Below are positions 8,780-51,604 of a stretch of 55,124 bases of DNA, piece by piece. The notes below the pieces were generated by a model that was not told the origin of the DNA, did no database searches, and saw only the letters and a program-made list of their open reading frames with translations. Both the position numbers and the translations under genes were made by a program. Each line of letters opens with the position of its first letter. Position 1 is the first letter of the stretch. Source of the stretch: a virus (lineage: Duplodnaviria; Caudoviricetes); the IMG/VR virus record IMGVR_UViG_3300030104_000130, positions 1 through 55,124 of that record; one strand, 5' to 3'.

Positions 8780-8929
8780 TTAATTAGGTTTTGCTGGTGT
8801 CATACCACCATCTCTGTACATCGTTCTACCCATATTAGCTGGTTTTCTTTTAGGCATTTTACCGTCCATCATTCCTTGACGTTTAGCTTTCCCACCTGTT
8901 CCCATTTTTTTCTTTTTAGGTCCGTACAT
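8780..8929 (-). CDS. Basic microprotein of tandem [RK]xx[MY]xxG[GK]-like units, 49 aa (not in ORF track)
   Basis: MYGPKKKKMGTGGKAKRQGMMDGKMPKRKPANMGRTMYRDGGMTPAKPN; AGGAG RBS. Confidence 0.65.
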   Translation of the reverse strand: MYGPKKKKMGTGGKAKRQGMMDGKMPKRKPANMGRTMYRDGGMTPAKPN

Positions 8930-8931
8930 AA

Positions 8932-9090
8932 TTATCTCCTATCTTCTTTATTAAGTTCACGGTAATAGCTAGGCTTTAAACTTTCATTGTATCCTGCCAT
9001 TTCTCTACACTTCTGAACTTTTTCTTCAATAGAGTTATAGTTAGAAATGTTTCCACTTGGTTGTCTTTGATTTCCTTTTTGTTCTTCCAT
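8932..9090 (-). CDS. Hypothetical protein, 52 aa (not in ORF track)
   Basis: MEEQKGNQRQ...; AGGA RBS; fills gap after capsid terminator. Confidence 0.6.
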   Translation of the reverse strand: MEEQKGNQRQPSGNISNYNSIEEKVQKCREMAGYNESLKPSYYRELNKEDRR

Positions 9091-9101
9091 TTTATTTCCT
9101 A

Positions 9102-9130
9102 TAAAAGTGGAGGAGTCCGAAGACTCCCCC
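9102..9130 (-). terminator. Intrinsic terminator after capsid gene
   Basis: GGGGGAGUC-UUCG-GACUCCUCC hairpin with C(UUCG)G loop followed by ACUUUU. Confidence 0.75.
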
Positions 9131-9140
9131 GAGTTTGGTA

Positions 9141-10112
9141 TTAGTCAATACCGTAGAAAGCACCTACAATTGCTTCGTCTCTTAGTACTTTCGCACCATA
9201 GACATGCAATCCTCTAACGATATCACCGAAAGAACTTGGGTCTCTTAAGACTTCAGTTGAGATGATAGTTTGAGCAGTAGCTGTAGATGAGATATGTCCA
9301 GCCAAACATTTACCAGCAGCATTAGATGTTGCAGCAATATTGTTTGATTTGTACATGTCAAATCCACGTAGTTTTCCACTTGATACTAAACCATTTCTAA
9401 TTGAACCTTGACCTGCGTTGAAGTCTACAGATAGCAATTTAGAAGATGATTGTCCTAAAACTTCGTAGAAGTCAGGACTTGCAACAAACCAACGACCTTC
9501 TTCAGGTACGTTCTGTTCGTCTAATAGTCTTGCCATTCTAGCCATAAGGTCTAGTGGGTCTGTTTCGCCAGACTGACCTAAGTCAGCAGCACCAGAACCA
9601 TCATATACTCCAGCACCTAAGTCTGTCGCACTGTCAGCACCTAACACGTGGTTGGGTGAAGAAGCAGACAAACCAGCAAACATGACAGCAAGAACAGCAG
9701 CATCATATGAATCTTTCAATGCATATGCAGCAGAGCTTGAAGCTACTTCTTTGAAGTTGACGTGTGACATTTTAGTCTCAATATCATCTACGATGAATTT
9801 GAAAGCTTTAGCACTGTCAACAACCAAAGTAAGTTCTTGGTCTGTTAGTTTAGTTGCAGTAGTATCGCTACCTCTTGTGTAATCTGACACAGAGATAACA
9901 GGTTCTTTGATAATCTTTACAGAGTCTCCAAAAGCAGAAATTTCACCAGTATAATCGGTGTTTGTAATAGCTTCTACAACCGAGGACTTTCTGAAAAAGT
10001 TTAAAACCTTTTTAGAATAAATCGAAGGTAAGAAGAAACTATTATTCTGTCCACTTACAGAGTTTGCAAAGTTAGCATCGGTATCAGTTGAGGGTTCAAA
10101 AAATTGAGCCAT
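9141..10112 (-). CDS. Major capsid protein
   Basis: 323 aa after scaffold; FLPSIYSKKVL, ITNTDYTGEI..GDSVKI, VPEEGRW, DIVRGLHVYGAKV motifs of podoviral coat proteins. Confidence 0.9.
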   Translation of the reverse strand: MAQFFEPSTDTDANFANSVSGQNNSFFLPSIYSKKVLNFFRKSSVVEAITNTDYTGEISAFGDSVKIIKEPVISVSDYTRGSDTTATKLTDQELTLVVDSAKAFKFIVDDIETKMSHVNFKEVASSSAAYALKDSYDAAVLAVMFAGLSASSPNHVLGADSATDLGAGVYDGSGAADLGQSGETDPLDLMARMARLLDEQNVPEEGRWFVASPDFYEVLGQSSSKLLSVDFNAGQGSIRNGLVSSGKLRGFDMYKSNNIAATSNAAGKCLAGHISSTATAQTIISTEVLRDPSSFGDIVRGLHVYGAKVLRDEAIVGAFYGID

Positions 10113-10143
10113 TTGATATTCTCCTAAGTTTGTAAATTAATAG

Positions 10144-11010
10144 TTATGATTTTGCAATCCTGCCTTGTTGCATGGCTTCACTTATCTCGGCTTCATACCG
10201 ATCAAATTCATCCATAGACATTTTTGCAATCTCCTTCTCTGTCCAAACTTTCTGTTGCACTGGTTCAACTGTTGTTGTTTTAGTCGAGACCATATCAGCA
10301 GCAGACTTCTTGGACTTTTTAGAATTTGACTTCTTCGGTTCAACATCCATACCAATATCTTTCTTAAATAAATCTAAAGCTCTTGAAGCTAGATCAGCAT
10401 CGTCAGCATTGTTGTATACCCAATCTTGGATAGACTTAGGCTGCTCTTTTGCCCAACCATGAAAATCATCACTATTGCGAATATCTTCAAAATCAGGATG
10501 CTTATCCATCAATCGCTTTTCAGCATCTTTACGAACTAATTCTTGTTCACGTTGCTGTAGTCTTTCAAGTTTCTCTTTTAAGTCTTTAGATTTCTCTTCA
10601 GCCTGTAAGTGAGAAACAGTTTCTACAACTTCGTATACATCAGGATACTCTTCTCTAAACTTTTCAAGTTCCTCTGGAGATTTAGGAGCTACATAGTTAG
10701 GTCTGTTTTCAGCAGCCTTTTCTAATAACTCTTGTTCTCTAGACTTAAATTCGTTTAGTTTAGAGTCATAATGCTTTTTCAAGTCATCGTAACGTTTCTT
10801 GTAGTCTGGTCGCTTATAAGGTTCGTCTTTTGGAGTCTCCTCTTCAGCTACCTGTTCTACAGGTTCACTAGTTGTTGCTTCTTTCTTCTTAGCTTTTGGC
10901 TTCTCAAAAAAGAGTCCGTCAGCAGTATCAAAGTTTTCTTCAACATTTGTGTGCCATGATTTTTTCATATTGTAAGGATTGGCATTTTCCTCTTGTACTT
11001 CAGTAGTCAT
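10144..11010 (-). CDS. Capsid scaffolding protein
   Basis: Charged helical protein, YKKRYDDLKKH and HPDFEDI motifs, directly upstream of capsid. Confidence 0.75.
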   Translation of the reverse strand: MTTEVQEENANPYNMKKSWHTNVEENFDTADGLFFEKPKAKKKEATTSEPVEQVAEEETPKDEPYKRPDYKKRYDDLKKHYDSKLNEFKSREQELLEKAAENRPNYVAPKSPEELEKFREEYPDVYEVVETVSHLQAEEKSKDLKEKLERLQQREQELVRKDAEKRLMDKHPDFEDIRNSDDFHGWAKEQPKSIQDWVYNNADDADLASRALDLFKKDIGMDVEPKKSNSKKSKKSAADMVSTKTTTVEPVQQKVWTEKEIAKMSMDEFDRYEAEISEAMQQGRIAKS

Positions 11011-11019
11011 ATTCTTCTC

Positions 11020-11135
11020 CTACGGGGGCTTCGTTTAACAAGGTAGCTGCTTGTGCACTGCAGGGCTTGTCTTGTAAAGGTAGCCTTTCGGTTTATAAAA
11101 TGATAGGGTGCTTATGACATAAGGTAGCCCTACCG
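11020..11135 (-). promoter_or_regulatory. Structured leader of scaffold gene with three GCUACCUU..AAGC elements
   Basis: AAGGTAGC on + strand at 11040, 11077 and 11121. Confidence 0.55.
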
Positions 11136-11145
11136 TTAAGTTTGT

Positions 11146-11880
11146 TTAGCTTCTAACGTATTTTTTAGAAGGGTCTTGCATATCTCTTCGTAATGCAATA
11201 CTTATTTCTTTTTCTCCTGTATCCATTATAGGACGAGAAGAACTGTCAGTTGTTTGTTTTTCTACAATAATTTTCTGCGTAGCAGGTTCATCAGTAGATT
11301 CTACAACTACATTTTCTTCTTCTTCAGGTTCACCGCCAACCGCTAAACCTTGTCTTTCATCTGCTCTAGCTTCAGCATCTTTCATCATTGACATTAATTT
11401 GTCACTTCCGATTTCTTCTACAGCTTTTGCAGTAAAGACAAATTCTCCATCAGATAACCTTGCGGGTATACTGTCAGAGACTCCTGAACCCGGTCCTTCA
11501 ACAGGACCAGACCCAGCAAATTCTTGTGCAACGTCTATGACTTTATCAAATATCATTGATAGTCTATCGTTGCCTTGTAACGCATCCATTAGAAAATCTT
11601 CTTCTTCGCTATCTAATGCTTCGTCCAATATAAAATCTAAATATTCATCTTCCATTTCATCATCTGGAAGCATGTCTTCTTCTTGTTCTTCAGGCATTGA
11701 ATCTTTTTTCATTTCTTTTTTTGGTGCAATCATAATAGCTACACCGCCTTCTTCATAGCCCATACGTTCAACAACTTCAGGTGCAACTTTTTTTAAAGCT
11801 TCTAAACCTTCATTTGGCATTTCTACTTCAGTGCCATCTTTGTATTTAATTCTTATTTTGTCGTCTTGTAATAAACTCAT
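11146..11880 (-). CDS. Acidic head-region protein with GPGSGVSDSIPARLSDGEFV domain (candidate maturation factor)
   Basis: Motif usually seen in tape-measure protein C-termini; lies between portal and scaffold. Confidence 0.6.
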   Translation of the reverse strand: MSLLQDDKIRIKYKDGTEVEMPNEGLEALKKVAPEVVERMGYEEGGVAIMIAPKKEMKKDSMPEEQEEDMLPDDEMEDEYLDFILDEALDSEEEDFLMDALQGNDRLSMIFDKVIDVAQEFAGSGPVEGPGSGVSDSIPARLSDGEFVFTAKAVEEIGSDKLMSMMKDAEARADERQGLAVGGEPEEEENVVVESTDEPATQKIIVEKQTTDSSSRPIMDTGEKEISIALRRDMQDPSKKYVRS

Positions 11881-12110
11881 GTTTCCTCTTTTCTATTGAT
11901 TGCTTCTTTAACCTGCTCCGGTAGCTGCTCTAAGCGTACCAGAGAATTGATCTTCCCCTGCAACCGGAACATTTCCGATTCCGATGTTGCCACCACCAGT
12001 GCCTGTAACTCCAAGGTCTTGAGGTTGTGCAGGTGTTCCTTGAAGGCTTCCCATACCAGTTGGTTGCCCGTTAGGGCTTTGAGCTTCAGGGCTAATTGTT
12101 TGTCCAGCAT
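11877..12110 (-). CDS. Small helical protein overlapping the portal 3' end
   Basis: AGGA RBS; amphipathic RLQGKINSL helix; ATGA coupling to next gene. Confidence 0.6.
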   Translation of the reverse strand: MLDKQLALKLKALTGNQLVWEAFKEHLHNLKTLELQALVVATSESEMFRLQGKINSLVRLEQLPEQVKEAINRKEET

Positions 12111-14109
12111 TTTGCATTCCTATAATTTGTGCCATAATTGCAGCTTCTTCAGGATCGTTGAGTATTTCATCAGGGTCTAAGTCTAAGCTGTAGGCAAGTT
12201 CACTTACAAGTTTAGAAATTTTAACAAATGGAGCTATAGCAGGATTTTGTGCAGTTTGTAAGAATGTAGTTAATCTTTGACTACGTACTTCTTTTTGCAT
12301 CAAGCTATTAGTTCCAGTAGCTTTAACTTCTAAATCACCATTGACATCTAACCCACCTTCAAAGAACTGCATGTTCCATTGGAAGAAAGCTTCTCCAAGA
12401 GGTCTTAATAAAAAGTCGTCAAGGTTTTTAACGACTGTTTTAATATTTAAACTTGATGCACCTAACAACATAGACATACCCGAAGCAGTCCGTGTCATAC
12501 TTTGTACACCTGTTTGTCCGTGTGAATAACTAGGAATACCTGTTTGTTCATCTGCAAGTTGTCTAAACTTGTCAAACATCATCATATTTTCAGGTGCTGT
12601 ATTAGGAAACTTCAAACCATGTATAGCTTGTCCGGGCATACCAGCTTGTCTTCTAAATATCTTACCCGGATATATTTCCATAGATTGTCCACCAACTAAC
12701 GCAGACTCATCTACATCAAACACCAAAGACCCAGCCATTGCTAGGTTATCTACAGCCATACGTGCATGACCATTCATAATTTGTTGGCTATCATCCATGT
12801 TTTCAGCTACACCAATACCAAAGAAGTTATAAGGATTTCTTTCGTATGGGAAAGCGTGGTAAGGTATTCTGTAAGGAGTAAATGGATTAATTACTGCTCT
12901 TAATACATTATCACCACATATCCACGCATTAATTTGAACTTCATCTAGATCATCAATATCATCTGCAAGTTCTATACCGACTTCACGTGCATACTCTGCA
13001 TCCATGATTCCCCAGTATTCAAGAACTTCAAAGTTTGTTTGATAGTCTTCATCAGCTCTTGCATCATCTTTTAAATGTGACTCAAAGCTTTTCTCTTCGT
13101 AGTTAGCTCCCATCTGTAAACAATTACGGATAGCATCCTCATCAAAGTAAGGCATGTTACGAAGTTGTCTAAGTTGAGATTTGTTTAGTTTGTGTCTATG
13201 GATAACATACTCACACTCTTCAATGCTAGTAGCTCCGGGGTCAGGATAAAAATCCCAACAACTAACAAACTCAATTCTAGGTACTCTAACTTCTAATGGA
13301 TTATAATTTCTTTCACCATCTTCACCAGTTTCCCACTTGTGAAGTTTTTTATTAAAATTAAATGGTCCTTTTACAATCCCTGTACCAAGTAAAGAAGATT
13401 CTAAAAGAGCATTTCTAATTTCTGATGAACCTTTAGATTCATCTATTTGATCATGAATAAGTTTTTCCATTCTCCTTGCAGCTTTTTGTGCTGGAGAAAT
13501 TTCTAAAGCTTGAGGGTTAGGACTTAAACCTTCGACTAATTGATCTTCTACTTGATCTTCTAAAGGTGTTTCAAATACTCCTTTGTTAAGTGTAGCTCCG
13601 GGTTTTAAAACTTTACCGTCACCTTCGTAACCAACATCATATGGGTTATCTATTCTATTACCAATATCGTCTGGTAATTCACCTCCACCCATAGGACTTT
13701 CTAATCCGGGTGCACCTGTTTGAGTATCTAAATGTGCGTTAGCTAATTCGCCTTCAGGTATTTTAGTTTCAGCAATACCAATTGGAAACTTACCTGTACC
13801 AAAGATTACATCAACAAGTTGACCAAAAGCAGCAAGTACTTTTGTTTTAGTAATCTTTACAAAAATACGAGACTTTTCTGAGTCTCTAAACTTAACAGAC
13901 TTGTTATAAAGTCCTCTGTAGTTTTCGTATGATTTAATCCAACGTAATTCATCTGAACGTCTAGCATCTTCAGATACAGTAAATCTTGATTTTATAATAC
14001 CAACAAGATTATTTTTTTGTTCTATTTCAAGAGCAAGTTCTTTACCAGCTTCACCTTCTACTTCTTCATAAAGATTATCAGCGTTTAAAAATGTATTTTC
14101 TTTTTCCAT
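11908..14109 (-). CDS. Portal protein
   Basis: 733 aa after terL; LLGTGIVKGP, WDFYPDP, PYNFFGIGV, RTASGMSML motifs. Confidence 0.9.
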   Translation of the reverse strand: MEKENTFLNADNLYEEVEGEAGKELALEIEQKNNLVGIIKSRFTVSEDARRSDELRWIKSYENYRGLYNKSVKFRDSEKSRIFVKITKTKVLAAFGQLVDVIFGTGKFPIGIAETKIPEGELANAHLDTQTGAPGLESPMGGGELPDDIGNRIDNPYDVGYEGDGKVLKPGATLNKGVFETPLEDQVEDQLVEGLSPNPQALEISPAQKAARRMEKLIHDQIDESKGSSEIRNALLESSLLGTGIVKGPFNFNKKLHKWETGEDGERNYNPLEVRVPRIEFVSCWDFYPDPGATSIEECEYVIHRHKLNKSQLRQLRNMPYFDEDAIRNCLQMGANYEEKSFESHLKDDARADEDYQTNFEVLEYWGIMDAEYAREVGIELADDIDDLDEVQINAWICGDNVLRAVINPFTPYRIPYHAFPYERNPYNFFGIGVAENMDDSQQIMNGHARMAVDNLAMAGSLVFDVDESALVGGQSMEIYPGKIFRRQAGMPGQAIHGLKFPNTAPENMMMFDKFRQLADEQTGIPSYSHGQTGVQSMTRTASGMSMLLGASSLNIKTVVKNLDDFLLRPLGEAFFQWNMQFFEGGLDVNGDLEVKATGTNSLMQKEVRSQRLTTFLQTAQNPAIAPFVKISKLVSELAYSLDLDPDEILNDPEEAAIMAQIIGMQNAGQTISPEAQSPNGQPTGMGSLQGTPAQPQDLGVTGTGGGNIGIGNVPVAGEDQFSGTLRAATGAG

Positions 14110-14115
14110 ATATTA

Positions 14116-15762: not shown

Positions 15763-16003
15763 ATGTCTTATCCACGTACTTTTTTAAACCGGGTCTTGAC
15801 ATGCCTTTACCTGTTTCAGCTTCTAGCCAATCAACACCTATTCCTAGGCTAATTTCTTGGTGAAAAACAGACTCAGCCACTTCCTTAAGCACAGCCAAGT
15901 CTGATTCCACGGGTTTTAGATAACCATCAAAGTTTTCATCAAGCTCATAACCAAAAGGTATGGTTGAAGAAGTTCTTTTGATATAGTTATCAGGGACAAA
16001 CAT
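15737..16003 (-). CDS. Small putative DNA-binding protein
   Basis: IPFGY motif plus HTH-like WLEAETGKGMSRPGL. Confidence 0.55.
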   Translation of the reverse strand: MFVPDNYIKRTSSTIPFGYELDENFDGYLKPVESDLAVLKEVAESVFHQEISLGIGVDWLEAETGKGMSRPGLKKYVDKTYGRLGKKS

Positions 16004-16099
16004 TTAGATTATCCACATAATTATTAAAGCTGATATAAATCCTATACCACACATAACACCCCAGACTTGCATGTCTGTTAGGTCATTAGTTTCAATCAT
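16004..16099 (-). CDS. Membrane microprotein, 31 aa (not in ORF track)
   Basis: MIETNDLTDMQVWGVMCGIGFISALIIMWII; exactly fills gap between neighbouring genes. Confidence 0.55.
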   Translation of the reverse strand: MIETNDLTDMQVWGVMCGIGFISALIIMWII

Positions 16100-16100
16100 A

Positions 16101-16214
16101 CTATTTACTTTTTTTTCTAGTAGTTCTTTTAACATTTGTTTTCCTCTTGGTTGTTTGTTTTTTTGGAGCTAGAAAGTTTTTTATTGCTTCTAACCATTTC
16201 TTAATCATTGTCAT
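16101..16214 (-). CDS. Small basic protein
   Basis: GAGGAG RBS before ATG at 16214. Confidence 0.55.
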   Translation of the reverse strand: MTMIKKWLEAIKNFLAPKKQTTKRKTNVKRTTRKKSK

Positions 16215-16383
16215 TGTTATTCTCCTCGGTTTTCTTTTTACCGAATATTCGATCCCAGTTATCTCTATAGTCTTGTGTATAAAATCCTGGTCTAGGATTA
16301 GCACCTTTACTTCCGTGTGTATTTTTATAAATTGGTGATCTAAAAGTTACTGGCTTTTCGTCACTGCCTATTTGTTTACCCAT
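16201..16383 (-). CDS. Small hypothetical protein
   Basis: HGSKG..RP...Y.DNWDRIF pattern familiar from marine phages; overlap coupling. Confidence 0.55.
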   Translation of the reverse strand: MGKQIGSDEKPVTFRSPIYKNTHGSKGANPRPGFYTQDYRDNWDRIFGKKKTEENNNDND

Positions 16384-16582
16384 ACTCTTTTTCGTCCATA
16401 CATTTTCGCCATTCATCTAAGATTATCTCTTCAGGATAAGGAGCATAATGAATGGCTTTACATTTTTCAAATTGTTTTCGCCACTCGTTAGGATCGTATC
16501 TATCGTTCCATTCTTTTTGTTTTACTTCAGGTGTATGCACACAACCTGTTAACAAACACAAGACTATTAACTTTTTTACCAT
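16376..16582 (-). CDS. Small lipoprotein
   Basis: MVKKLIVLCLLTGC: basic N-region, hydrophobic core, LTG-C lipobox. Confidence 0.65.
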   Translation of the reverse strand: MVKKLIVLCLLTGCVHTPEVKQKEWNDRYDPNEWRKQFEKCKAIHYAPYPEEIILDEWRKCMDEKEYG

Positions 16583-17106
16583 TTAACTCTGTTAGCCCAA
16601 TAAGCTGCCGACATTTTGCCTTTGGCAATGTTCTTTCTGTGTCTAGCTTTAAAAGACTTTCTTTTCATTTTTGTTTTACGAGACTCTCCTGCTTTAGGTT
16701 TACCTGCAGTCTTAGCACCTTGTTGTCCAAATCGTATTGTTTTGATTTTTGTACCTTCTTTTGCAACAACAATATGTGACTTAGTAGGATGATTGGGAGT
16801 ACGCTTGGGTTTGTTGTAACCACTGACTCCTGCTCGTTTTAATCTGCTGTCAGCTTTACCACCTTTAGCCATTCTAAACTTAGCAGTTTTTTCTGCAATC
16901 TTTTTAGGTTGAGGTGAGTGTTGCTTACCGGCAGCTTTATCTGCTTTTTTCTTTGCTGATGTTCTTGAATATTCTTCTGAAGTTAAAGTTTCTCTAGCTT
17001 TCTTTGGTAAATATCTTTCACCTGTTTCGCTAGACTTTTTACCAGACTTAGTTCCCCAGTCTTGTTCACCCCATTTCTTTAGAGACTCTTGTGGTTTCTT
17101 TAACAT
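16576..17106 (-). CDS. Very basic two-domain protein
   Basis: QESLKKWGEQDW..GERYLPKKA domain, MAKGG linker, then GYNKPKRTP..IRFGQQG..SAAYWA domain. Confidence 0.7.
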   Translation of the reverse strand: MLKKPQESLKKWGEQDWGTKSGKKSSETGERYLPKKARETLTSEEYSRTSAKKKADKAAGKQHSPQPKKIAEKTAKFRMAKGGKADSRLKRAGVSGYNKPKRTPNHPTKSHIVVAKEGTKIKTIRFGQQGAKTAGKPKAGESRKTKMKRKSFKARHRKNIAKGKMSAAYWANRVKW

Positions 17107-17333
17107 TACTTGTATCCTCCACCAGCTTTCTTGTAAGCCTTGGCTAGGGCTTGGGCTTTACGGGCAGACCATTGACCGGCTGCAGTACCGTGTGAAGCTT
17201 GTGATTTTATGCGTTGAAATATTCTTTTACGTAGTCCGGGCTTAGTATAGTTACCTGCTTCGTTGACTCGTGACTTAGACTTTTTCTTTTTAGCCTTACC
17301 ACCTTTTCTAAGTTGTAATCTTTCTAATAACAT
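17106..17333 (-). CDS. Basic protein, DUF5872-like N-half
   Basis: NYTKPGLR...GQWSARKAQ.LAK.YKKAGGGY. Confidence 0.65.
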   Translation of the reverse strand: MLLERLQLRKGGKAKKKKSKSRVNEAGNYTKPGLRKRIFQRIKSQASHGTAAGQWSARKAQALAKAYKKAGGGYK

Positions 17334-17954: not shown

Positions 17955-17961
17955 GTTCTTT

Positions 17962-17990: not shown

Positions 17991-18016
17991 GCTTTTAAAG
18001 TTTTTTTCTTTAAGAC

Positions 18017-41737: not shown

Positions 41738-41974
41738 TTATTTATCCAGTGTTAAAGTTGTTTCAAGTAAATCGTTTATAGAATCTAATAAATACTCTGG
41801 TACATCTTTACCAAGTATATCATCTTCGTTGTATGCAACCATGTAAGACTCTATAAGGTCTTCATACAATGGTCTAAAATCTTCTCGCTTTATCCAAGGC
41901 TCGTTACAAATTGTACGAGCTTTACAATCTATACGATAAGCTTTGTCTAATTGTTTCTCTGTGTAAAGTAGCAT
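41738..41974 (-). CDS. Hypothetical protein
   Basis: TAATG coupling; operon packing. Confidence 0.6.
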   Translation of the reverse strand: MLLYTEKQLDKAYRIDCKARTICNEPWIKREDFRPLYEDLIESYMVAYNEDDILGKDVPEYLLDSINDLLETTLTLDK

Positions 41975-44900
41975 TAGTCAATTATATTTAATAATTTATT
42001 TGTTGTTTCAATTCTTCTGTCTAAATGTGGCTCACTTGGTTTTTCATATTTTTCTGAAAATTGAATTGCTACTTCATCTGGTGTGCCTTCTTTAAAAATC
42101 CTTTGAAGTTCTTGTCTATCATCTGTATTAAATCCCATTGCTTCCTCATTGCCTTTTAAAACTTCGTGCATAAATTGAATTTGAGATTCCGGTGTATCAT
42201 TTAATTTATTTTTATCTCGCCAATCATCATAATATTTTTTTTGAAAATCAAATTGGAATAAACCATATCCATTACCATTACGTTGTTTAGTTGTATGATC
42301 GTAAGTATACGCTGTTTCAACACCTATGTTGCCTAAGATTCCAGCCCTAGCATTTTTAGAATAGCCTAATTTTTTTAGATAATTATTTATTTTTTGTATT
42401 CGTGCTTGAGATTCATTACCACCATTATTAAATCCTAACCTATTCATTTGTTCTGCATAACTCATACCACCCAAATCATCGCTTTCTCTGTCTTTTGGGT
42501 CTTTCTTTACAAACGATACAGGGTATTCGTCTTGAACTTCTCCACCTTCATCAAAAGGTCTGCGTAATTTTTCAAATTCTGTTCGTCTTACAATGTTAGG
42601 TTCATCACTTAATTCTTCTAAATGAATACCATATTCCGTATCATTAACTACTGGAATAATCAATCTATTATAAACATTAATAAATTCTCTAGCAGGAGTA
42701 GGTTTTAATACAGACACTACAGCACCCTCATAATCACTAGCTTCTAAATTTTTACTAACTTTCATAGGAACTTTTGTTAAAGAGTCTACCTGTGATAAAA
42801 TAGGAGATAGATTTACAATTGGACTTTTACTACCAGAACCAGTCCAGTATTGAAAAGTTCTTAAAAATTTCTCAGCTCTCCAATCCGCAGCTCCAGATAA
42901 GTTTACAGCTTCAGCCCACCATTTTTCACTAAATCTATCTGGTGCGTTTTTTTCATAATACTCTTGAGCTGGACTTGCCATAATTTGTAACTCTCTTATA
43001 CCACCATAAATAGCTGTACTACCTAAAAGTTTAATAGCAAGTTTCATGTCTCCGTCTTCAACTCTTCTAATTAACGTGTTCATCTGAACTGATTTTGCTT
43101 GTGCCCAAGATAAAAATAATCCCATAGATTTAACATAAGGATTTTTACTTTGGTTAAATAACATTCTATTTCCTGCTGTTGGAACTAGAACATCCCTATT
43201 CATTGTTTTGTTTCCAGCCTTAACCAAAATACTTTGACCAATAGAATCATCAAAAGCATCAGTAATCGTATCAAACTTATTAAGATAAGTTAGTTCTTTT
43301 TTAGTTAATCCTTTGGAGTTCAATTGATTTGCTACAGCTTTTGAAACTTTTTTACTTGTAGCATATCTTTTTGCTAATTTAAAACCATCCTCAATACCTG
43401 TGTTAAATGCCCATCTTGCAGCAGCATCGGTAAGTGGTATCATACCATTATATCTAAAAAATTTTTGTGTTGCATCTACAACACCTTGTTCAAAGTTTGT
43501 TGTTGGATGATTACCAGATGCTAATAACGCATCTATTTCTTTAGATTTCATAGAGGTTCGATCAGTAGCAATACCAAGTTTTCTAGCAAAATCTCTATCT
43601 CCTCTCCATCTTGCAAGTAATGCTGTAGAAGCTGACCCAATACTAGAGTTTGTAAATGGTTGGACTAAATCTCCAAGCTGCGAAATAACAGCACGAGGTA
43701 AGAAAGTTGTATTGGCTAAAAATGTAAGTAATGCCATAGAATTTTTAGACATATCTGACACAGGGCTTGTTGCTCCGTGTACTCCAAAGTAAGCATTCGT
43801 AGAATCAATAATTAATTTTCGTTTTTCTTTATATGCTTTTTCACTTATTTTTCCTAGCTCTTTTTGCTTGTATAAATCTTGGAAAAATACTTTCATTCGG
43901 TCACCACGCTGCCCAAACTTACGTGCAAATTCTACACCCCGGGTTGTATTACTTACCCATTTATCTAAAACTTGAACCAAGTTTGTTTCTAAATAAGGTT
44001 CTAATATCTTAATAGCTTTTGGGTCTTTAAAAAATCTTTCTCTTTCAAAGTTTTTAAGATATGGAACTCCTTTAAAAATTGGCTGTGCTCCTTCTATATC
44101 AAACAAAGTTTTTTGAGACTGACCAGTCATATTTTCATAAATTTCTTCTACTTGTGCGTTTAGTTTATTACCTTTTAATTTAGGCTTTTCTACTTTTAAA
44201 GCTTGGCGAATTGCTTTTTTAAATCCTGTGGGATTTGACATAATTTCTCTACTATAAATTTGTGGTAATCCATAGTTAGCAATTTGTTCAAAATCAATTC
44301 CAGCTTGTTTGGCATATTTAACAACATCAGCTTTAAACACTTCAACATTTGCTACAAGTTGTCTAACATTTTTAATATTTTCGGGAGTTAAATTAAATTC
44401 TTTAATTAAATTTTTCTCTGTATCTAATTGTCTTACAATTTTAAAAGCTGCATTCATTTCATTTTCGTTTGCATTTTTTAAAACTTTTGCAATTCTACCA
44501 GAGAACCAAACATTAAAAGAATCTGTTGCTTGTTCTGCACTTATAATTGATTTTTTTCTTCCGTCTAAAACAGTAAATAATGTTCTAGCAAAAGTTTCAT
44601 TTGGTCCACCATGTGCAATGTTTCTAGTTGTTATATTACCGGATGTCCAAACTTTTAAAAAGTTATGAAGCCCAACCGCAGCAGAATTATTTAAAAATCC
44701 AAATGCTTTTTCTTTAGAATCTTTTGTTAAGTATGGAGTTTTTTCAATCATTCTACTCATTCCACCTAACGCTAAACCAGCAGCCATAAAAGAATATTGT
44801 GAAGTATTATCATCTTCGTCACCAACAAACGTACCAATACTATAACCTAAACCACCACCAAACAATGGTCGAACAAATCCATCCATAATGTTAAGTAACA

Positions 44901-46239
44901 TGCTTTCACTTATAGGAATATTGTTTTGTCTAAGACCTTTTAGAGTAGATTCAACTAATTCAACTTGACCATCTGCCATTTGTCTCATTAAATTTGGTAA
45001 CTTATTTTTAAGAAAATCAGTTGCTTCTTTATCTTTCTTTTTAAGATTTGAAAATTTTTGTGCAGATATACCAGCTAACCTATATTGTTCTGCTTTACTT
45101 ACTTTGGTTCCTTTTACAACAACATCAAGTTGGGACATAACTCTATAACCATCTTCATCTACAACGTCAGCTAATAATTTTTTAGCGTTATTAAAATTAT
45201 CTACGTCAATTTGATATTTTTTAACAATTTGATTTAGATAAGTAGAACTTTCAAGTTGTTTTAAAAGTGGTGCAACATCGGCACTAATTTCAGGAACAAC
45301 AGAAGCAAGCTGTTCAACTTCTTCATTTGTTAATTTTGGAGCCTGTGTATCTTTTGCAGAACTTTGTACAATAACATCTTCTCCAGAATCATCAACTTTA
45401 CCAAGATTTATATTTTTATCTTTTGGACCATACATCTTATTAGCAAGTACAGTACCTCCTAATGTTGACAGACCACCCAAACCTGCAGCAAAAAATACAT
45501 TGCTTGGACTAACTTCTCCGTGATTTGCATATTCATATATAGATATGTCTACAGCACCAATTCCAGCACCTATTCCCGTTGCTCCAGCTTTACCAACTTT
45601 TGCAATCTTTGCCCAAGGAATTAAAAATGTTAGAGGGTCTACTAGTGCAGTTGATACACTACCAGCTATAACTTCTGCATCCCTACTAAACTTTGTAAAG
45701 TCTTTACCATACTTTGTTTTCATTAAATTATAAACTTTATCAACTCTTTCTTTAGCTAAATCTTCTACATTTTGTTGATAACTTTTATTATTACTTAACG
45801 TTAATCCACCAGCCTTAATTAATCTAAAAATATTACCAGCAGTCCATGTTTCTAAACGTGTACCTAATTCAAATTTTTCTGCAGATGTTGGTTCAATCGA
45901 AGTAGGTGTTGTATTATCAATAACAATCCTATCATCATCATATGTATTAATAGCGATAGATTTTTTAAAGGCAGCATAAATTCGATTGACATCTTGAATT
46001 TGCTGCTCTTTTGTTTGAGGTATAATTTCTGGAGAAAGAGGTTCTTCTTTTACTGAGACTGTAGGAATAGTTGCTTCTTCTTCAATAGATTCAATAGGAG
46101 TTTCTTGAACATCTTGTTGCATTTGTTCAAGTTTTTCTTTTTCTAATCGTCTACGTCTTTCTTCTTCTGTTTCAAAAACATCAGGGTCTTTAGACGTAAC
46201 CGTTTGTTTAAATATATCATATATTCGATTAGATTCCAT
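41974..46239 (-). CDS. Large internal virion (ejection) protein with C-terminal phage tail lysozyme domain
   Basis: 1421 aa; hydrophobic Gly-rich helices; AGILGNIGVE..GYGLFQF..QIQF..FSEKYEKP. Confidence 0.75.
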   Translation of the reverse strand: MESNRIYDIFKQTVTSKDPDVFETEEERRRRLEKEKLEQMQQDVQETPIESIEEEATIPTVSVKEEPLSPEIIPQTKEQQIQDVNRIYAAFKKSIAINTYDDDRIVIDNTTPTSIEPTSAEKFELGTRLETWTAGNIFRLIKAGGLTLSNNKSYQQNVEDLAKERVDKVYNLMKTKYGKDFTKFSRDAEVIAGSVSTALVDPLTFLIPWAKIAKVGKAGATGIGAGIGAVDISIYEYANHGEVSPSNVFFAAGLGGLSTLGGTVLANKMYGPKDKNINLGKVDDSGEDVIVQSSAKDTQAPKLTNEEVEQLASVVPEISADVAPLLKQLESSTYLNQIVKKYQIDVDNFNNAKKLLADVVDEDGYRVMSQLDVVVKGTKVSKAEQYRLAGISAQKFSNLKKKDKEATDFLKNKLPNLMRQMADGQVELVESTLKGLRQNNIPISESMLLNIMDGFVRPLFGGGLGYSIGTFVGDEDDNTSQYSFMAAGLALGGMSRMIEKTPYLTKDSKEKAFGFLNNSAAVGLHNFLKVWTSGNITTRNIAHGGPNETFARTLFTVLDGRKKSIISAEQATDSFNVWFSGRIAKVLKNANENEMNAAFKIVRQLDTEKNLIKEFNLTPENIKNVRQLVANVEVFKADVVKYAKQAGIDFEQIANYGLPQIYSREIMSNPTGFKKAIRQALKVEKPKLKGNKLNAQVEEIYENMTGQSQKTLFDIEGAQPIFKGVPYLKNFERERFFKDPKAIKILEPYLETNLVQVLDKWVSNTTRGVEFARKFGQRGDRMKVFFQDLYKQKELGKISEKAYKEKRKLIIDSTNAYFGVHGATSPVSDMSKNSMALLTFLANTTFLPRAVISQLGDLVQPFTNSSIGSASTALLARWRGDRDFARKLGIATDRTSMKSKEIDALLASGNHPTTNFEQGVVDATQKFFRYNGMIPLTDAAARWAFNTGIEDGFKLAKRYATSKKVSKAVANQLNSKGLTKKELTYLNKFDTITDAFDDSIGQSILVKAGNKTMNRDVLVPTAGNRMLFNQSKNPYVKSMGLFLSWAQAKSVQMNTLIRRVEDGDMKLAIKLLGSTAIYGGIRELQIMASPAQEYYEKNAPDRFSEKWWAEAVNLSGAADWRAEKFLRTFQYWTGSGSKSPIVNLSPILSQVDSLTKVPMKVSKNLEASDYEGAVVSVLKPTPAREFINVYNRLIIPVVNDTEYGIHLEELSDEPNIVRRTEFEKLRRPFDEGGEVQDEYPVSFVKKDPKDRESDDLGGMSYAEQMNRLGFNNGGNESQARIQKINNYLKKLGYSKNARAGILGNIGVETAYTYDHTTKQRNGNGYGLFQFDFQKKYYDDWRDKNKLNDTPESQIQFMHEVLKGNEEAMGFNTDDRQELQRIFKEGTPDEVAIQFSEKYEKPSEPHLDRRIETTNKLLNIID

Positions 46240-46248
46240 AGAGAAGTC

Positions 46249-48045: not shown

Positions 48046-48644
48046 TATAATTCTCTCTTAGTTAATAATCCTTGTTCGGGTTGTGCTAGTAAACTTTCTG
48101 GAACTTCTACTTCTTTAATTTGTTCCATAATATCTGACGGTAAAACTCCTGAAGGTATTTGTCCTTTTGTAGGCTCTTTAATTTTTTCCTTTGCAGTTTC
48201 CATAACTTTTTCCATCGCTGACAATTGCTCTTCATCATCATCAAAATCTTCTTCTTCTTCACCTCTATAAATTGTATAATCAAGTACACCAGCTCTTTCA
48301 ACCAATGCCATGATTAAATACATAGTAGGCTCAATTAATAACATCATTAAATCTGGATTCCAGCTACCTTCTTGAAATCCAGAATATAAAATAAACTGCG
48401 TAATATCAGAAATAGGAGTACCTCTTCTTGCCATTTCAACAATACCACTATAAGATTCAGGTTCAGTCATATCAATAAACAAAGCATCAATAGCTGGTTG
48501 AAGTTCTGTAAACTGTGGCGGTTGCTCCCAAGGATAAGGATTATCTGGATTGTTTGTTAATGATTGACCGGGAATAGGTCTTTGCATACTTCCCAAAAAG
48601 TTTAATCCTTCTTGATCGTAATTTTTATAATTTTTTTCTATCAT
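48045..48644 (-). CDS. Virion-associated hypothetical protein
   Basis: RPIPGQSLT..YPWEQPP motif; acidic. Confidence 0.55.
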   Translation of the reverse strand: MIEKNYKNYDQEGLNFLGSMQRPIPGQSLTNNPDNPYPWEQPPQFTELQPAIDALFIDMTEPESYSGIVEMARRGTPISDITQFILYSGFQEGSWNPDLMMLLIEPTMYLIMALVERAGVLDYTIYRGEEEEDFDDDEEQLSAMEKVMETAKEKIKEPTKGQIPSGVLPSDIMEQIKEVEVPESLLAQPEQGLLTKREL

Positions 48645-48647
48645 TAT

Positions 48648-49508
48648 TTAATTCCTGTTAATACCTTGAGTAAACCAAGCGTTCCATTCATTACCACGAT
48701 ACGTTGTTTCTGCTCCTTGTAAAATTGCTGCTGGTGTATTATAATAAAGACCATTAGAATTATATATGTTTTCCTCTTTATTTATTCTTGAAGGCTCTGA
48801 TATGTTACTAAAATCTGCAACATAAGGAGATGAATAACCATATTCATTTTCATCTCTATCAAACAGATAGTCTATACCTGCACTTGTAATTTTTTCTGCA
48901 ATTTTTGTAGGTGCTTCAGTTATTTCTGTTTTTAATTTATCAGGTATCTCTTTTGCAGCATCTACAGCAGTTTCAAAAAATGTTTTATTTTCAGCTTCTT
49001 TTTTTACTGTATCTTTTACTACTTCTGTAGGAACATCTTTAGTAGAAATAACTTCGGTTTTTGGCACGTCTTGTGTAATATTCATTGGATCTTTTTCAAC
49101 ATTACCTTTTATCCAATCTCCAAAGTCTCCAATTTTTTCACCTACATAATCAAATGCACCATTAATAGCACCACTAACAGTATTGTAAGCTCCTTTAATT
49201 CCATTAGCTGCCATTTGAATGCCTTGAAAAGTATAACCTACAGCCTTTTGAAATATGTTTGCACCGGGTCCTGTTAATCCTGCAATAGTAGAACTAAATG
49301 CACTACCTGTTAAGTAACTAAATGTAGACCCAATTGCCCAAGGCATAATAAAGCCTAACGCAAGTTGACCAACAATACCAAGTTTTTGAAAAGGTTTTGC
49401 AATTTTACCAATAACTTTACCTACTTTTTTGGCAATCTTTTTAATACCCCTTCCTACTTTTTTTACAATCTTTTTAAAAGATTTTCCTATTTTACTTAAT
49501 ATTCCCAT
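48648..49508 (-). CDS. Probable ejection protein with cationic amphipathic N-terminus
   Basis: MGILSKIGKSFKKIVKKVGRGIKKIAKKVG then hydrophobic helix. Confidence 0.6.
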   Translation of the reverse strand: MGILSKIGKSFKKIVKKVGRGIKKIAKKVGKVIGKIAKPFQKLGIVGQLALGFIMPWAIGSTFSYLTGSAFSSTIAGLTGPGANIFQKAVGYTFQGIQMAANGIKGAYNTVSGAINGAFDYVGEKIGDFGDWIKGNVEKDPMNITQDVPKTEVISTKDVPTEVVKDTVKKEAENKTFFETAVDAAKEIPDKLKTEITEAPTKIAEKITSAGIDYLFDRDENEYGYSSPYVADFSNISEPSRINKEENIYNSNGLYYNTPAAILQGAETTYRGNEWNAWFTQGINRN

Positions 49509-49519
49509 ATAATCTCCAA

Positions 49520-51604
49520 TTAACCTTTACCAAACATAGTATTCCATATCTGTGACACATTTGTCATTGTTGCACCCCAGTCTTTTGCTGACTCTCCTTC
49601 ATTAGCGAGAGCCTGTGCATATAGTTGAGCTTTTCTATTTTCTTCATTTTCATAAGCTCTAAAATCATAATCAGCTTGATCTCTCAATTCTTGCCATAAA
49701 AATGCCTGTGCTTGTGCAGATAAATTAAATGCATTCTGTGCGTTCTGCATAGATACTTGATTTGCAGCAGCAGTGTTAATAGTATTAGCTTGTCTTCGCC
49801 ATGCTAAGTTTGCTTGTTCAACTGCTTGTGCATTAGCTACATTAAACTTTTCTCTATCAAACTCTACCTGAGAATTAAATTGATTTATTTGATTAACCAT
49901 TGCAGCATTAGCCTTTTCTAAATCTGCTTCAACTTGAAACTCTAACGCTTGTCTAGCATTAATTTGTTGTGTGTTAAACTGCGACATAGCGTTAGCTTGT
50001 TGTGTATTAAACTGTTCGACTTGAGTTGCTAGGCTTGTCATAAACTGCTGTGTTTGATTCTCACTAGCAGCATTAAATTGTCTTGCAGCATTTTGTGAAG
50101 ACTGATTACTTAATAAAGTTTGTTGAGCTTGTTGAGCTTTTAATATATTAGCTTGTTGCTCATTATTAAGATTTGTTAAATCCATTTGTAAAAAAGACCT
50201 TGCATTATTTATTTGTGCTTGTTGATTAAAATCTGCTTCAGCTAAATTAGCCTGTGACATAAGCATAGCATTTTGTATAGTGCTTTGTTGTGTCATATTG
50301 GCTTCCGTAATTCCTACAGTTTGTAAAAATTTACTGTTAGATAACGCTATTTGTTGGTCAGCACTAAACTGAGCCATGTCTAATTGAAAAACTTTACCAG
50401 CGTTATCAAGTGCTGTTTGTTGTCTAAACTGAGCATTTTGTATTTCAGCTTGAGCTTCAATAGCTTTCTGTTGTCCTACACTTTGCTGAATTGCTTGTGC
50501 ATTAGCTTGTGCTAAAGGAACAGCAGATTGAATAATAGCATTGAGCAAAGCATCTCTACCCACTGTTGAAGCTTCCATACCACGTTGTGCTAATAATTTT
50601 TCTACACTAGCAACAGCAGGTCTAGCCCAAACAGGTATCTCACCTTCTTCAATACCACTTAGTAAACTGTCTAACTGATTAGATACTAAAGCTTCTTCAG
50701 GTAGACCAGCGATAACTCCACGTTCAGCTTCTGTTAAATCCATCAACCTAGCTTCTAGGTCTTCAGGGTCGTTACCTAATATAGCTATATCTTCAGCACT
50801 AACACCAGCGTTAGCTAACTGTTTCTTAGCCCTTGTAACACGTGCTAGAGTAGTACCTGCTACTTGAGCAGCTTCTGCCATAGCATTAGGACTCATAGTT
50901 CCTATAACTCTTTCAGTTAATGCACCGGGAATAATTTCTACTTCAGCAGCTTCAATAGGAGCCACACGTTCTACTTCTGCAGCTTCTGCTAATGCTTCAG
51001 GTCTTACCTCACCTTCTGCAACATCTACTTCTGGAGCTTCTGTAATTTGAGCTGCTTCCATTTGTGCAGCAGTAAGTGGTTCAGGAGCAGACACTGCTGG
51101 TGCAGCTTCTGCAGTTACAGCTTCTGGAGCTGTTGGCATATCAGCAGTTTCAGCTACTAAATCTTCTCGAGGTGCTACTTCTTTAGCTACACCCATCTCA
51201 CCTACTTCTACTTGTTGAGGTGCTTGAACTTGAGGAACACCTGTCATGTCTCCAGCAGCTAATTGTTCTGCTCTTCTTTTAGGATTTGTAATTCTTGTTT
51301 TAACAGGTTTTGGTTTATCTACTGGTTTAGTTTCTAAAAGACCTCCAGAAACAGAACCTGCTCCACCCATTCCCGGATCGGGTCTGTCTACGGATACAGT
51401 TTTAACCACGTCTCCAGTGCCACCACCATTAATGTCAGGTCTATCAACTAAATCATTTCTAGTATTTTGACGTTCTTGTTCTTCACGAAGTCTTTCTAAT
51501 TCTTCTATTTGAGGAACACCACCAATTTGTTTTGCAACTCTACCACCTTGACGATAGTCTTCTCTTTTACTAGAACTTCTTTTTCTATCTTTTCTTTTTG
51601 ACAT
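49520..51604 (-). CDS. Probable internal virion protein, Gln/Ala/Asn-rich helical
   Basis: Long QFN/NAQ-rich helical C-half typical of DNA-ejection proteins. Confidence 0.6.
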   Translation of the reverse strand: MSKRKDRKRSSSKREDYRQGGRVAKQIGGVPQIEELERLREEQERQNTRNDLVDRPDINGGGTGDVVKTVSVDRPDPGMGGAGSVSGGLLETKPVDKPKPVKTRITNPKRRAEQLAAGDMTGVPQVQAPQQVEVGEMGVAKEVAPREDLVAETADMPTAPEAVTAEAAPAVSAPEPLTAAQMEAAQITEAPEVDVAEGEVRPEALAEAAEVERVAPIEAAEVEIIPGALTERVIGTMSPNAMAEAAQVAGTTLARVTRAKKQLANAGVSAEDIAILGNDPEDLEARLMDLTEAERGVIAGLPEEALVSNQLDSLLSGIEEGEIPVWARPAVASVEKLLAQRGMEASTVGRDALLNAIIQSAVPLAQANAQAIQQSVGQQKAIEAQAEIQNAQFRQQTALDNAGKVFQLDMAQFSADQQIALSNSKFLQTVGITEANMTQQSTIQNAMLMSQANLAEADFNQQAQINNARSFLQMDLTNLNNEQQANILKAQQAQQTLLSNQSSQNAARQFNAASENQTQQFMTSLATQVEQFNTQQANAMSQFNTQQINARQALEFQVEADLEKANAAMVNQINQFNSQVEFDREKFNVANAQAVEQANLAWRRQANTINTAAANQVSMQNAQNAFNLSAQAQAFLWQELRDQADYDFRAYENEENRKAQLYAQALANEGESAKDWGATMTNVSQIWNTMFGKG

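Follow-up and report, generated by a model that had tools for sequence, protein, structure and literature searches.

A short motif, [RK]xx[YFML]xxGG, recurs in several late proteins of the phage genome analysed here, and the initial annotation read it as a phage-wide tag for loading internal proteins into the head, for processing them, or both. We asked whether this recurrence exceeds chance, and whether the motif is best understood as an address, a cleavage site or something else. The window is the whole 55,124-nucleotide stretch of IMG/VR record IMGVR_UViG_3300030104_000130. The genome is that of an HMO-2011-type podophage, with Pelagibacter phages as the closest named relatives. Its portal and adaptor are of the SU10 type (Pfam), and from these matches the phage appears to be short-tailed.

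Distribution of the motif in the window

The 76-ORF set was scanned with the strict motif ([RK]xx[YFML]xxGG). The scan gave nine matches in six late proteins and no match in the remaining ORFs, early ORFs included. These nine matches and two variants lay where the initial annotation had placed them, and the six proteins (A to F) fell into different BLAST clusters, in agreement with its statement that they are otherwise unrelated. All six genes and the features within them are on the minus strand.

Protein A (8780..8929) is a very basic, Met-rich protein of 49 aa with two motif units, KKKMGTGG (8891-8914) and RTMYRDGG (8804-8827). The acidic protein B (11146..11880, 244 aa), encoded directly after the portal gene, contains RMGYEEGG (11743-11766), RQGLAVGG (11332-11355) and the variant RIKYKDGT (11833-11856). 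Protein C (16576..17106, 176 aa, basic) consists of two small genes fused, with KFRMAKGG (16858-16881) on the seam, and protein D (17106..17333, 75 aa, basic) carries RLQLRKGG (17298-17321) in its leader. Protein E (41974..46239, 1421 aa) is a probable internal virion protein of PHROG 684 (virion structural protein) with a first site at RRPFDEGG (42541-42564) and a second site at RLGFNNGG (42418-42441). Protein F (49520..51604, 694 aa) is a late protein of no known family, and its leader holds REDYRQGG (51542-51565) and the variant RVAKQIGG (51518-51541).

The motif falls within the first 30 residues of F, D and A and at residue 39 of B; in C, E and the second site of B it is internal or near the C-terminus. 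This agrees with the placement first described, in leaders at the N-terminus and at joints between domains, one of them immediately ahead of the lysozyme domain. The core of R, a hydrophobic residue and GG was found in strongly basic and strongly acidic surroundings alike.

Chance expectation of the motif

Whole-protein shuffles gave 1.70 ± 1.30 matches compared with nine in the real proteome, with a maximum of 8 in 2000, and 20-aa block shuffles gave 1.80 ± 1.34 matches, with 0 of 2000 reaching nine; both tests treat the motif as pre-specified. When 2160 two-class patterns anchored on GG were compared in the real proteome, the motif itself came first (Poisson p = 3e-4); shuffled proteomes reached this value in 16% of 400 cases with whole-protein shuffling and in 17% of 400 with block shuffling. 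When all 400 anchor dipeptides were admitted, the median best p of the shuffled proteomes was 4e-6. The raw count therefore exceeded that of shuffled proteomes, but the enrichment within the window was not significant once the post hoc selection of the pattern was taken into account, and the window alone proves no more than chance. The contrast drawn between late and early proteins held to the extent that no strict motif was found in early proteins; however, only 0.52 were expected there (P(0) = 0.60), so the zero says little. Five more distant named relatives contained 12 strict motifs against 8.2 expected.

We consider the observation real because the motif is conserved in relatives for four of the six proteins. 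These four are F, B, A and E, whereas in C and D the motif appears in a small minority of close relatives. Most of the relative counts given below come from close relatives, so the events are not independent.

Conservation of the motif in relatives

Protein F has a basic N-terminal leader with motif repeats, followed by a variable linker and a conserved Q/N/A-rich C-terminal part. The leader (residues 1-29; 51518..51604) comprises a basic cluster with REDYRQGG and RVAKQIGG as tandem 8-residue units. Alignments with relatives mostly began at about residue 100, and the linker did not align. The strict motif was present in 49 of 53 unique complete N-termini, and the spacing from GG to GG was 8 in 38 of 50 cases. 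R14, D16, G20, G21, R22 and G28 were invariant in 30 sequences whose identity to the window copy over 60 aa was 20-81% (no more than 52% in 29 of the 30). Leaders of this family carry 2-3 motif units in tandem with no cargo between them. The AlphaFold2 model, of low confidence (pLDDT about 64-65), predicted no regular structure for the leader, and the leader profile gave no PDB match.

Protein B had 6638 homologues at E <= 0.001, and at least one strict motif occurred in 60 of 71 unique relatives, some of which had up to 5. E44, G45, G46, R176, G182 and G183 were invariant in alignment A1 and R39 was at least 90% conserved, with both GG pairs invariant and their flanks variable. In long forms of B, GG directly precedes SLL(Q/E)DD, with which the short forms begin. 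In B as in F, the motif is followed by a long variable linker. The model of B was of low confidence (pLDDT 43).

Residues 118-183 of B (11332..11529) form a tape-measure-like module that ends in the second motif, RQGLAVGG. This module matched eight PHROG tape measure families (best E 1.1e-10), the PDB tape measure chains 8zdo (1e-7) and 8rk3 (6e-4), and residues 754-782 of lambda gpH (E 3e-4), where KFHFATGG and MRGYATGG flank the matching module. Among the motif sites, only these residues of B matched the module seen in tape measure proteins, which runs from GG through a G-x-G-x-SD-S-I-P stretch to GEFV. No tape measure gene was identified among the late ORFs with PHROGs, which gave only local matches in B, E and a 286-aa ORF (48648-49508), and the module does not lie here within a long-tailed phage's tape measure protein. 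In profile-profile comparison of B, E and F the motif was the best local match, though weakly so (P 0.007-0.11), and the scores were far below any level that would indicate homology.

The two sites of E bound a conserved module of about 49 aa (42418..42564, from RRPFDEGG to RLGFNNGG). The motif was present in 21 of 28 relatives of E, and the module was carried by 233 cluster representatives. Its first GG was invariant, with V next, in 20 sequences (alignment A4), and R stood six residues before this GG in 65 of 92 representatives (50% identity clusters). The second GG (residues 1273-1274) lies 7 residues before the Phage_lysozyme2 domain (residues 1281-1418; 41986-42399; Pfam PF18013, E 1.2e-21) and forms the seam to it, so that E has a glycine-rich motif directly before the muralytic domain of a virion protein. 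Relatives with a further domain (tail of at least 60 aa) had the second GG in 21 of 25 cases compared with 0 of 10 that ended at the module (within 6 aa); in the local set the counts were 5/8 and 0/6. Domains downstream of the module were SLT and Phage_lysozyme, each in 2 of 25 scanned, and Phage_lysozyme2 in the window. The module profile had no PDB match. The presence of the second GG only when a domain follows fits a seam and not a tag.

For protein A, all 16 unique BLAST relatives and all 23 proteins of a related cluster of small proteins had 1-4 motif units. Many of the listed members finish with lysine-rich residues such as MPKAKPC, and in some relatives A-like arrays form one protein with the family to which the adjacent 52-aa protein belongs.

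Protein C joins PHROG 14910 (residues 2-78) to PHROG 7595 (residues 84-176). Among its relatives the N-domain alone occurred 35 times and the C-domain alone 35 times, as separate ORFs, and the fused form five times; the motif was present in all five fused forms and confined to those. In most proteins that consist of the C-domain alone, the start Met is followed by a short run rich in lysine and then by D(S/P)RL, frequently giving MAKKKD, so that the M of the motif aligns with their start Met. The N-domain had at least four different partners, with an R-x5-GG joint each time. The leader of D, MLLERLQLRKGG, contains RLQLRKGG and was present in 5 of 38 unique relatives. Many relatives lacking it start just before the conserved core, and some ORF calls have longer N-terminal extensions. 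The expectation of conservation in relatives was thus borne out for F, B, A and E but not for C and D.

Across 51 protein families of relatives the frequency of the strict motif was bimodal, with 5 to 7 families at 40-100% and about 40 at 0%; the summed shuffle expectation was about two families with a match. The families without it included the adaptor and nozzle as well as the portal (0/78), large terminase (0/105), capsid (0/65) and scaffold (0/69).

Interpretation of the motif

Our preferred reading, held tentatively and with somewhat less than even confidence, is that the motif is a conserved architectural joint that marks module seams and not a head-loading address. It builds on the observed conservation, on the placement of the motif at seams and on the kinship of one module with tape measure proteins. 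In such a joint the basic and hydrophobic residues would close one element, Gly-Gly would break the chain, and a hydrophobic residue plus Val would often open the next. The borders so marked would be those of portable modules, namely leaders, small repeat units and swappable end domains. Tail tape measure proteins, with their [FY]xxGG joints, would have a joint of the same kind, and [FY]xxGG was found at borders with module gain, loss or swap in the E family, the C family fusions and the long B forms. From gene position and weak family matches, the proteins with the motif are probably carried within the particle and leave it by way of the tail at ejection. The main role would be that of a flexible, exposed hinge where evolution adds, drops and swaps modules, with cutting at the joint probably optional rather than obligatory. 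A plain hinge does not explain the conserved R six residues before GG, or the D four residues before GG in F. Neither does it explain the 2-3 cargo-free tandem units of F and the up to four of A, which would rather suggest that a partner or an enzyme recognises the motif.

The capsid targeting sequence of T4 is removed by the prohead protease, and a prohead-protease model had been proposed for the present motif. Searches of 39 late and 35 early ORFs with Pfam, of 39 late ORFs with PHROGs and of 15 late ORFs with NCBIfam gave no protease family, which told against this model and also counts against obligatory cleavage. The papers searched on HMO-2011-type phages yielded no virion proteomics or N-terminal sequences. 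Obligatory maturation cleavage at or near each joint, by a host protease, an unrecognised virion protease or self-cleavage, would remove the leaders, free the lysozyme and both halves of C, and perhaps chop A into basic peptides; we judge it somewhat unlikely. Orthologues without the leader or partner do start at the GG or a few residues from it (D, both C halves, short B and the 52-aa family), the second GG of E accompanies a following domain, and cutting at glycine-rich joints is reported for T5 pb2, lambda gpH and TP901-1 Tal. The reported T5 cut, however, is before GG and not after it, tandem sites 8 residues apart are unusual for processing, and removal of the leader in F and B would leave their long variable linker tethering nothing. 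That one protease, of the host or hidden in the virion, cuts all R-x-x-hydrophobic-x-x-G-G joints is improbable. If it did, the internal proteins of the present phages, which are very abundant in the ocean, would be polyproteins of interchangeable cargo, and so would the tape measure proteins of long-tailed phages. The 1421-aa protein would release its lysozyme, the fused small basic proteins would come apart, and the 49-aa repeat protein would be chopped to short basic peptides. The kind of site used in the cutting of lambda gpH, long unknown, would also have a name.

The motif could also be a sorting or docking tag, a short linear peptide bound by a putative common partner (scaffold, inner capsid face, portal channel or chaperone) that recruits or anchors the motif proteins, with tandem copies adding avidity. 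The same core in basic and acidic surroundings suggests specific recognition and not a charge effect, and the tandem units of F and A, the F leader on its variable linker like an anchor on a leash, and motif regions predicted to lack regular structure alone, as docking peptides usually do, are consistent with this. The reported T4 targeting sequence is a precedent, and the B module corresponds to the predicted hook of JBD30 that would anchor the tape measure in the baseplate. We nevertheless regard a tag as unlikely, given that E drops the second unit whenever nothing follows, that in C and D the motif is restricted to few close relatives, and that the same joint occurs in tape measure proteins, where published accounts would place it in the tail lumen and not the head. 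The joint and one whole module in tail proteins, together with the behaviour of E, do not support a phage-wide head-loading tag. Quite unlikely, in our view, is a post hoc pattern with no shared function, kept within families by descent and local needs (a helix end or turn) and recurring across families through chance and a basic, glycine-rich composition. The equally extreme patterns in shuffled proteomes, the two families expected by shuffling, the modest excess in the five named relatives and the start Met behind the hydrophobic M of C all fit it. It sits poorly with motif columns in F that are invariant beside hypervariable sequence, with the R conserved across diverse E-module representatives, with repeated independent seams of R-x5-GG form and with the bimodal family frequencies.

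Comparison with known systems

Adenovirus protease sites have the form (M/I/L)XGG-X, in which the fourth residue back from the cut is M, I or L. The present motif resembles them as a Gly-Gly site common to unrelated virion proteins, some very basic; the adenovirus proteins are DNA-associated precursors. However, the hydrophobic residue of the motif stands at the fifth instead of the fourth position back from the putative cut, and the adenovirus rule applied to 0 of 9 sites (fourth position back G, R, E, A, A, R, D, N and R). Pfam and NCBIfam searches gave no cysteine protease gene, and the proposed analogy with di-Gly proteases of the adenovirus type was not upheld.

For T4, a short, conserved capsid targeting sequence is described at the N-terminus of diverse internal proteins, where it works with the scaffolding core. 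Proteins F, D and A similarly carry the motif near the N-terminus, but half of the present sites lie inside the protein or close to its C-terminus, the motif is found also in tail tape measure proteins, and Pfam, PHROGs and NCBIfam gave no prohead protease.

In the Tal protein of TP901-1, processing is reported at a glycine-rich motif that immediately precedes the catalytic domain, with Gly-to-Arg changes blocking the processing, and in TP901-1 and Tuc2009 this processing is described as removing the lytic domain. In E, too, a glycine motif is directly before a cell-wall-degrading domain. The Tal motif differs in its longer glycine run (NGGGNSGGGD), which has no R or hydrophobic signature, and belongs to a long-tailed phage of a Gram-positive host.

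T5 pb2 is reported to be cut after R1127, between FVPR and AEGGMMY and thus two residues before GG, at a site between a hydrophobic stretch and a muralytic motif; a 1973 title cited there names host involvement. Lambda gpH is cut in a glycine-rich region, and the account we draw on gives both site and enzyme as unknown. The authors of the JBD30 report predict that a tape measure hook provides anchoring in the baseplate, and this is the region to which the B module corresponds. The likeness to the tape measure joints and hook module of lambda gpH, T5 pb2, JBD30 gp46 and mycobacteriophage Douge gp16 lies in the matches of residues 118-183 of B, in the two lambda gpH motifs that flank the matching module, and in the cut sites of T5 pb2 and lambda gpH. 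Unlike the tape measure joints, the motif here is spread over six separate proteins and occurs in tandem arrays, and a conserved R usually stands six residues ahead of its GG.

Organization and relationships of the phage genome

Late genes occupied the minus strand (1-18116 and 36899-55124 of the 55,124 bases) and early genes the plus strand (18998-36902). Among the late genes were those for the capsid protein, the small and large terminases, tail fibres and a portal and adaptor of SU10 type, together with a likely scaffold gene; a further late gene (41974-46239) encoded a virion protein of 1421 aa whose C-terminal domain is a phage lysozyme. The early set included a primase-helicase, a family A DNA polymerase and a ribonucleotide reductase. 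The portal shared 54-61% identity with its counterparts in Pelagibacter phages HTVC115P, 104P, 103P and 033P and 46-50% with those in the Roseobacter CRP phages and Puniceispirillum phage HMO-2011. The window is an HMO-2011-type podophage and probably a pelagiphage. Published abstracts describe phages of the HMO-2011 type as a marine viral group that is both dominant and widespread.

A minus-strand ORF ran off the high end of the window (54990-55124 and 1-26); the record probably represents a circular or circularly permuted genome opened within a small gene. Tail-fibre genes included two paralogous cassettes of two genes each (53583-54986 with 52510-53583, and 1585-3021 with 521-1585). In each cassette a DUF7483 protein (PHROG 24898 / 19943) accompanied a SPRY or Laminin_G-like protein (PHROG 27411), which suggests two alternative or combined receptor-binding sets. 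The late strand also carried a NifU-like iron-sulfur cluster scaffold gene (37279-37680; Pfam NifU_N, E = 4.6e-37), likely an auxiliary metabolic gene.

Occurrence of the motif and expectation by chance

The initial annotation had described a recurrent motif, [RK]xx[YFML]xxGG in its strict form, in six late proteins. Translation of all six ORFs recovered every quoted motif string in its place: in A (8780-8929, 49 aa; KKKMGTGG and RTMYRDGG), B (11146-11880, 244 aa; RMGYEEGG and RQGLAVGG), C (16576-17106, 176 aa; KFRMAKGG), D (17106-17333, 75 aa; RLQLRKGG), E (the lysozyme-domain protein; RRPFDEGG and RLGFNNGG) and F (49520-51604, 694 aa; REDYRQGG). The variants RIKYKDGT (B) and RVAKQIGG (F) were likewise recovered. 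The six proteins fell into separate BLAST clusters, in line with their initial description as otherwise unrelated. In the set of 76 ORFs the strict pattern occurred nine times, in these six proteins only.

When the pattern was taken as pre-specified, the nine occurrences stood against an expectation of 1.70 ± 1.30 from shuffling whole proteins (at most 8 in 2000 shuffles) and of 1.80 ± 1.34 from shuffling inside 20-aa blocks, where 0 of 2000 reached nine. However, the pattern had been picked after looking, and it was tested against 2160 GG-anchored patterns with two residue classes. It was the best of the 2160 in the real proteome (Poisson p = 3e-4), a value equalled by 16% and 17% of 400 shuffled proteomes (whole-protein and block shuffles, respectively), and with all anchor dipeptides the median best p in shuffled proteomes was 4e-6. 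The excess over shuffles was no longer significant once the post hoc choice was counted, and the enrichment numbers alone would not carry the finding. The motif's absence from early proteins carries little information, with 0.52 matches expected there (P(0) = 0.60). Stretches of 50 kb from five named relatives contained the strict pattern 4, 3, 0, 3 and 2 times (12 against 8.2 expected); all 12 matches lay on the late strand, and plus-strand ORFs held 0 against 1.98 expected. An internal Shine-Dalgarno-like GGAGG was ruled out as a nucleotide-level cause, seven of the nine GG pairs being encoded by GGT GGT or GGC GGT, one by GGT GGG and one by GGT GGA.

Conservation in relatives

We assembled two sets of 80 loci, one centred on relatives of the portal (77-95% identity) and one on relatives of F (48-88%), with ORFs taken from the matched strand. 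Because the loci come from close relatives the counts are not independent events, and because every ORF was opened at its first start codon some N-termini extend too far. Conservation in orthologues was found for F, B, A and E, and in these four families the motif is real; in C and D it was confined to a small minority of close relatives.

In F, the strict motif lay within the first 80 residues of 49 of 53 unique complete N-termini, and GR or GK replaced GG in the four exceptions. Thirty leaders were aligned, sharing 20-81% identity over 60 aa with the window's copy (52% or less in 29 of them); in this alignment R14, D16, G20, G21, R22 and G28 were invariant and V23 was conserved in at least 90%. 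Successive GG pairs were 8 residues apart in 38 of 50 cases. The linker after the leader was often Pro/Thr-rich and did not align, and BLAST matches to F mostly started near residue 100. This stretch was hypervariable, with PAPTPAPT-like repeat runs in many relatives (loci L088-L167), and F proteins ranged from about 590 to 1200 aa across relatives. The F orthologues HMO-2011 gp25 (L004, 17222-19342) and CRP-207 gp44 (L005, 20939-22846) carried another leader type, KPEA..K....MGYSG followed by MAKGGM and KMQTGGS. Its resemblance to the first motif region of B hints that leaders may have been exchanged between families.

B had 6638 homologues in public data at E ≤ 0.001. In 28 aligned sequences E44, G45, G46, R176, G182 and G183 were invariant and R39 was at least 90% conserved, and in many of them K replaced Y at the hydrophobic position. 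Of 71 unique relatives, 60 had one strict motif or more, and some had up to five. One to four units were found in all 16 unique relatives of A and in 23/23 members of a related small-protein cluster, and many members of the A family ended in a lysine-rich tail such as MPKAKPC. The motif was present in 21 of 28 unique full-length relatives of E, and the leader of D in only 5 of 38. For C, it was found in 5/5 fused forms, 0/35 ORFs with the N-domain only and 1/35 with the C-domain only (starting MRDDYKKGG). Across 51 families with at least five members, 5 to 7 had the motif in 40-100% of members and about 40 had it in 0%; it was absent from all 78 portals, 105 large terminases, 65 capsid and 69 scaffold proteins.

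Anatomy of the motif units

The eight-residue motif is the recognizable border of larger units. F carried it within a basic leader made up of two or three units of 8 residues, and in A the units stood in tandem. Site 1 of B was preceded by a helix-like stretch with a free 54-aa counterpart in CRP-207 (53% identity over 38 aa). Residues 118-183 of B formed a module closed by the second site, which matched eight PHROG tape measure families (best E = 1.1e-10), the PDB tape measure chains 8zdo (1e-7, two copies) and 8rk3 (6e-4), and lambda gpH 754-782 (E = 3e-4).

In E, both sites bounded one module of about 49 aa, whose profile matched 233 cluster representatives among 1.84 billion at E ≤ 0.001. 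Among the 150 representatives listed, 92 fitted the core pattern: R stood six residues before the first GG in 65 of these, the residue three before it was K in 32, F in 25, Y in 12 and L in 6, and GG was followed by L or I in 77 and then by V or I in 90. Searching the PDB with profiles of the E module and the F leader gave no match up to E = 10, and tblastn of a 48-aa E module against named phages also gave none.

AlphaFold2 gave no regular structure at the motif in the F leader, in a weak model (pLDDT about 64-65) without strands, and a beta-meander for the 8-residue repeats was rejected. The B model placed the ends of helices 24-39 and 159-180 at the two GG pairs, at a pLDDT (43) too weak for support. 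A prion-like His/Met metal-binding repeat was rejected for the A arrays, in which many units had no H or M beside GG. A search for longer fused forms of A scored none, which is weak evidence. The loci search with a 598-aa neighbour as query returned one locus only, and the ESM Atlas search with F returned only unnamed viral clusters.

Position of the motif at module seams

The seam after the E module was counted in 35 representatives of at least 900 aa whose module ended in LG[FLM]. The sequence xxGG came next in 21 of the 25 whose chain continued in a tail of 60 aa or more and in 0 of the 10 that stopped within 6 residues; in the local loci the counts were 5/8 with a tail and 0/6 without. The 25 tails scanned contained SLT in two and Phage_lysozyme in two, with no Pfam domain in the other 21, and the window's own tail domain was Phage_lysozyme2.

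C was a fusion of two small genes, covered by PHROG 14910 and PHROG 7595; relatives comprised 35 N-domain-only, 35 C-domain-only and 5 fused forms. The N-domain had four different partners, each attached through an R-x5-GG joint. Separate C-domain proteins mostly opened with Met and then a brief run rich in lysine, often MAKKKD, so that the motif's M in C (MAKGGKAD in the window) aligns with the start Met. In long forms of B, GG adjoined SLL(Q/E)DD, the N-terminus of the short forms, and in some relatives A-like arrays were fused to the family of the adjacent 52-aa protein (8932-9090). The E seam counts and the C joints bear out the placement at domain joints proposed in the initial annotation. 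In profile-profile comparisons of the B, E and F alignments the motif was the best local match, weakly (P = 0.11, 0.018 and 0.0066).

Cleavage, docking and other possible explanations

We tentatively read the motif as a conserved joint between portable modules of proteins that are probably ejected, comparable to the joints of tape measure proteins. The initial annotation had instead proposed a phage-wide tag for loading internal proteins into the head and/or processing them. Sorting into the head is opposed by the kinship with tape measure proteins and by the lack of the second E unit in proteins that end at this point, and a docking tag appears unlikely. Cutting by a prohead protease or an adenovirus-like enzyme found no backing: no protease family was detected with Pfam (any ORF), PHROGs (late ORFs) or NCBIfam (15 late ORFs), and the adenovirus-type rule places M, I or L at the fourth position before the cut, where 0/9 sites had one. 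Cleavage by a host enzyme is possible. Obligatory cleavage at the joints would fit cuts reported in tape measure proteins but is rather unlikely, since the leaders of F and B precede long variable linkers, which are sensible only if the leader stays attached. That the sites share no function at all, as the post hoc statistics would permit, is quite improbable.

An RTX-type lysine acyltransferase modifying GG-K sites was rejected: K followed only three of the nine sites, and no such Pfam family was found in the window ORFs scanned. A 'toxin-activating lysine-acyltransferase' is annotated in HTVC115P (gp46; L001, 23691-24140) and HTVC104P (gp36; L002, 5471-5920), in HTVC115P immediately upstream of the F orthologue in transcription order. 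The 286-aa protein encoded between F and E (48648-49508) resembles an ejection protein of the membrane-inserting kind: a lysine-rich amphipathic stretch forms its N-terminus, and a hydrophobic segment comes next. The accessible parts of the phiRIO-1 proteomics paper and of an ejection-protein review held nothing on the motif, and no published description of it was found at the level of listings and abstracts.

Comparison with tape measure proteins

If such a joint is indeed common to proteins that probably exit the particle before the DNA, it would tie short- and long-tailed phages together mechanistically. It would also help to locate cargo domains and the borders of modules in virion proteins that lack annotation, and would offer a new system in which to ask how, and at which sites, tape measure and ejection proteins are processed. 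TP901-1 Tal is reported to be processed at a glycine-rich motif preceding the catalytic domain (PMC11409707), and the region matching B is predicted by the JBD30 authors to form a 'hook' anchoring the tape measure protein (PMC11445458). T5 pb2 is reported to be cut after R1127 (PMC10038345, whose reference list cites a 1973 title naming host involvement). The sequence around this cut is FVPR↓AEGGMMY (L168, 22122-25781), so the cut lies two residues before GG; it falls within a joint of this kind, before GG and not after it. Lambda gpH is described as cut in its glycine-rich C-terminal region, with both site and enzyme unknown (PMC12617516). Lambda gpH contains a module like residues 118-183 of B, and KFHFATGG and MRGYATGG flank it as GG joints on either side.
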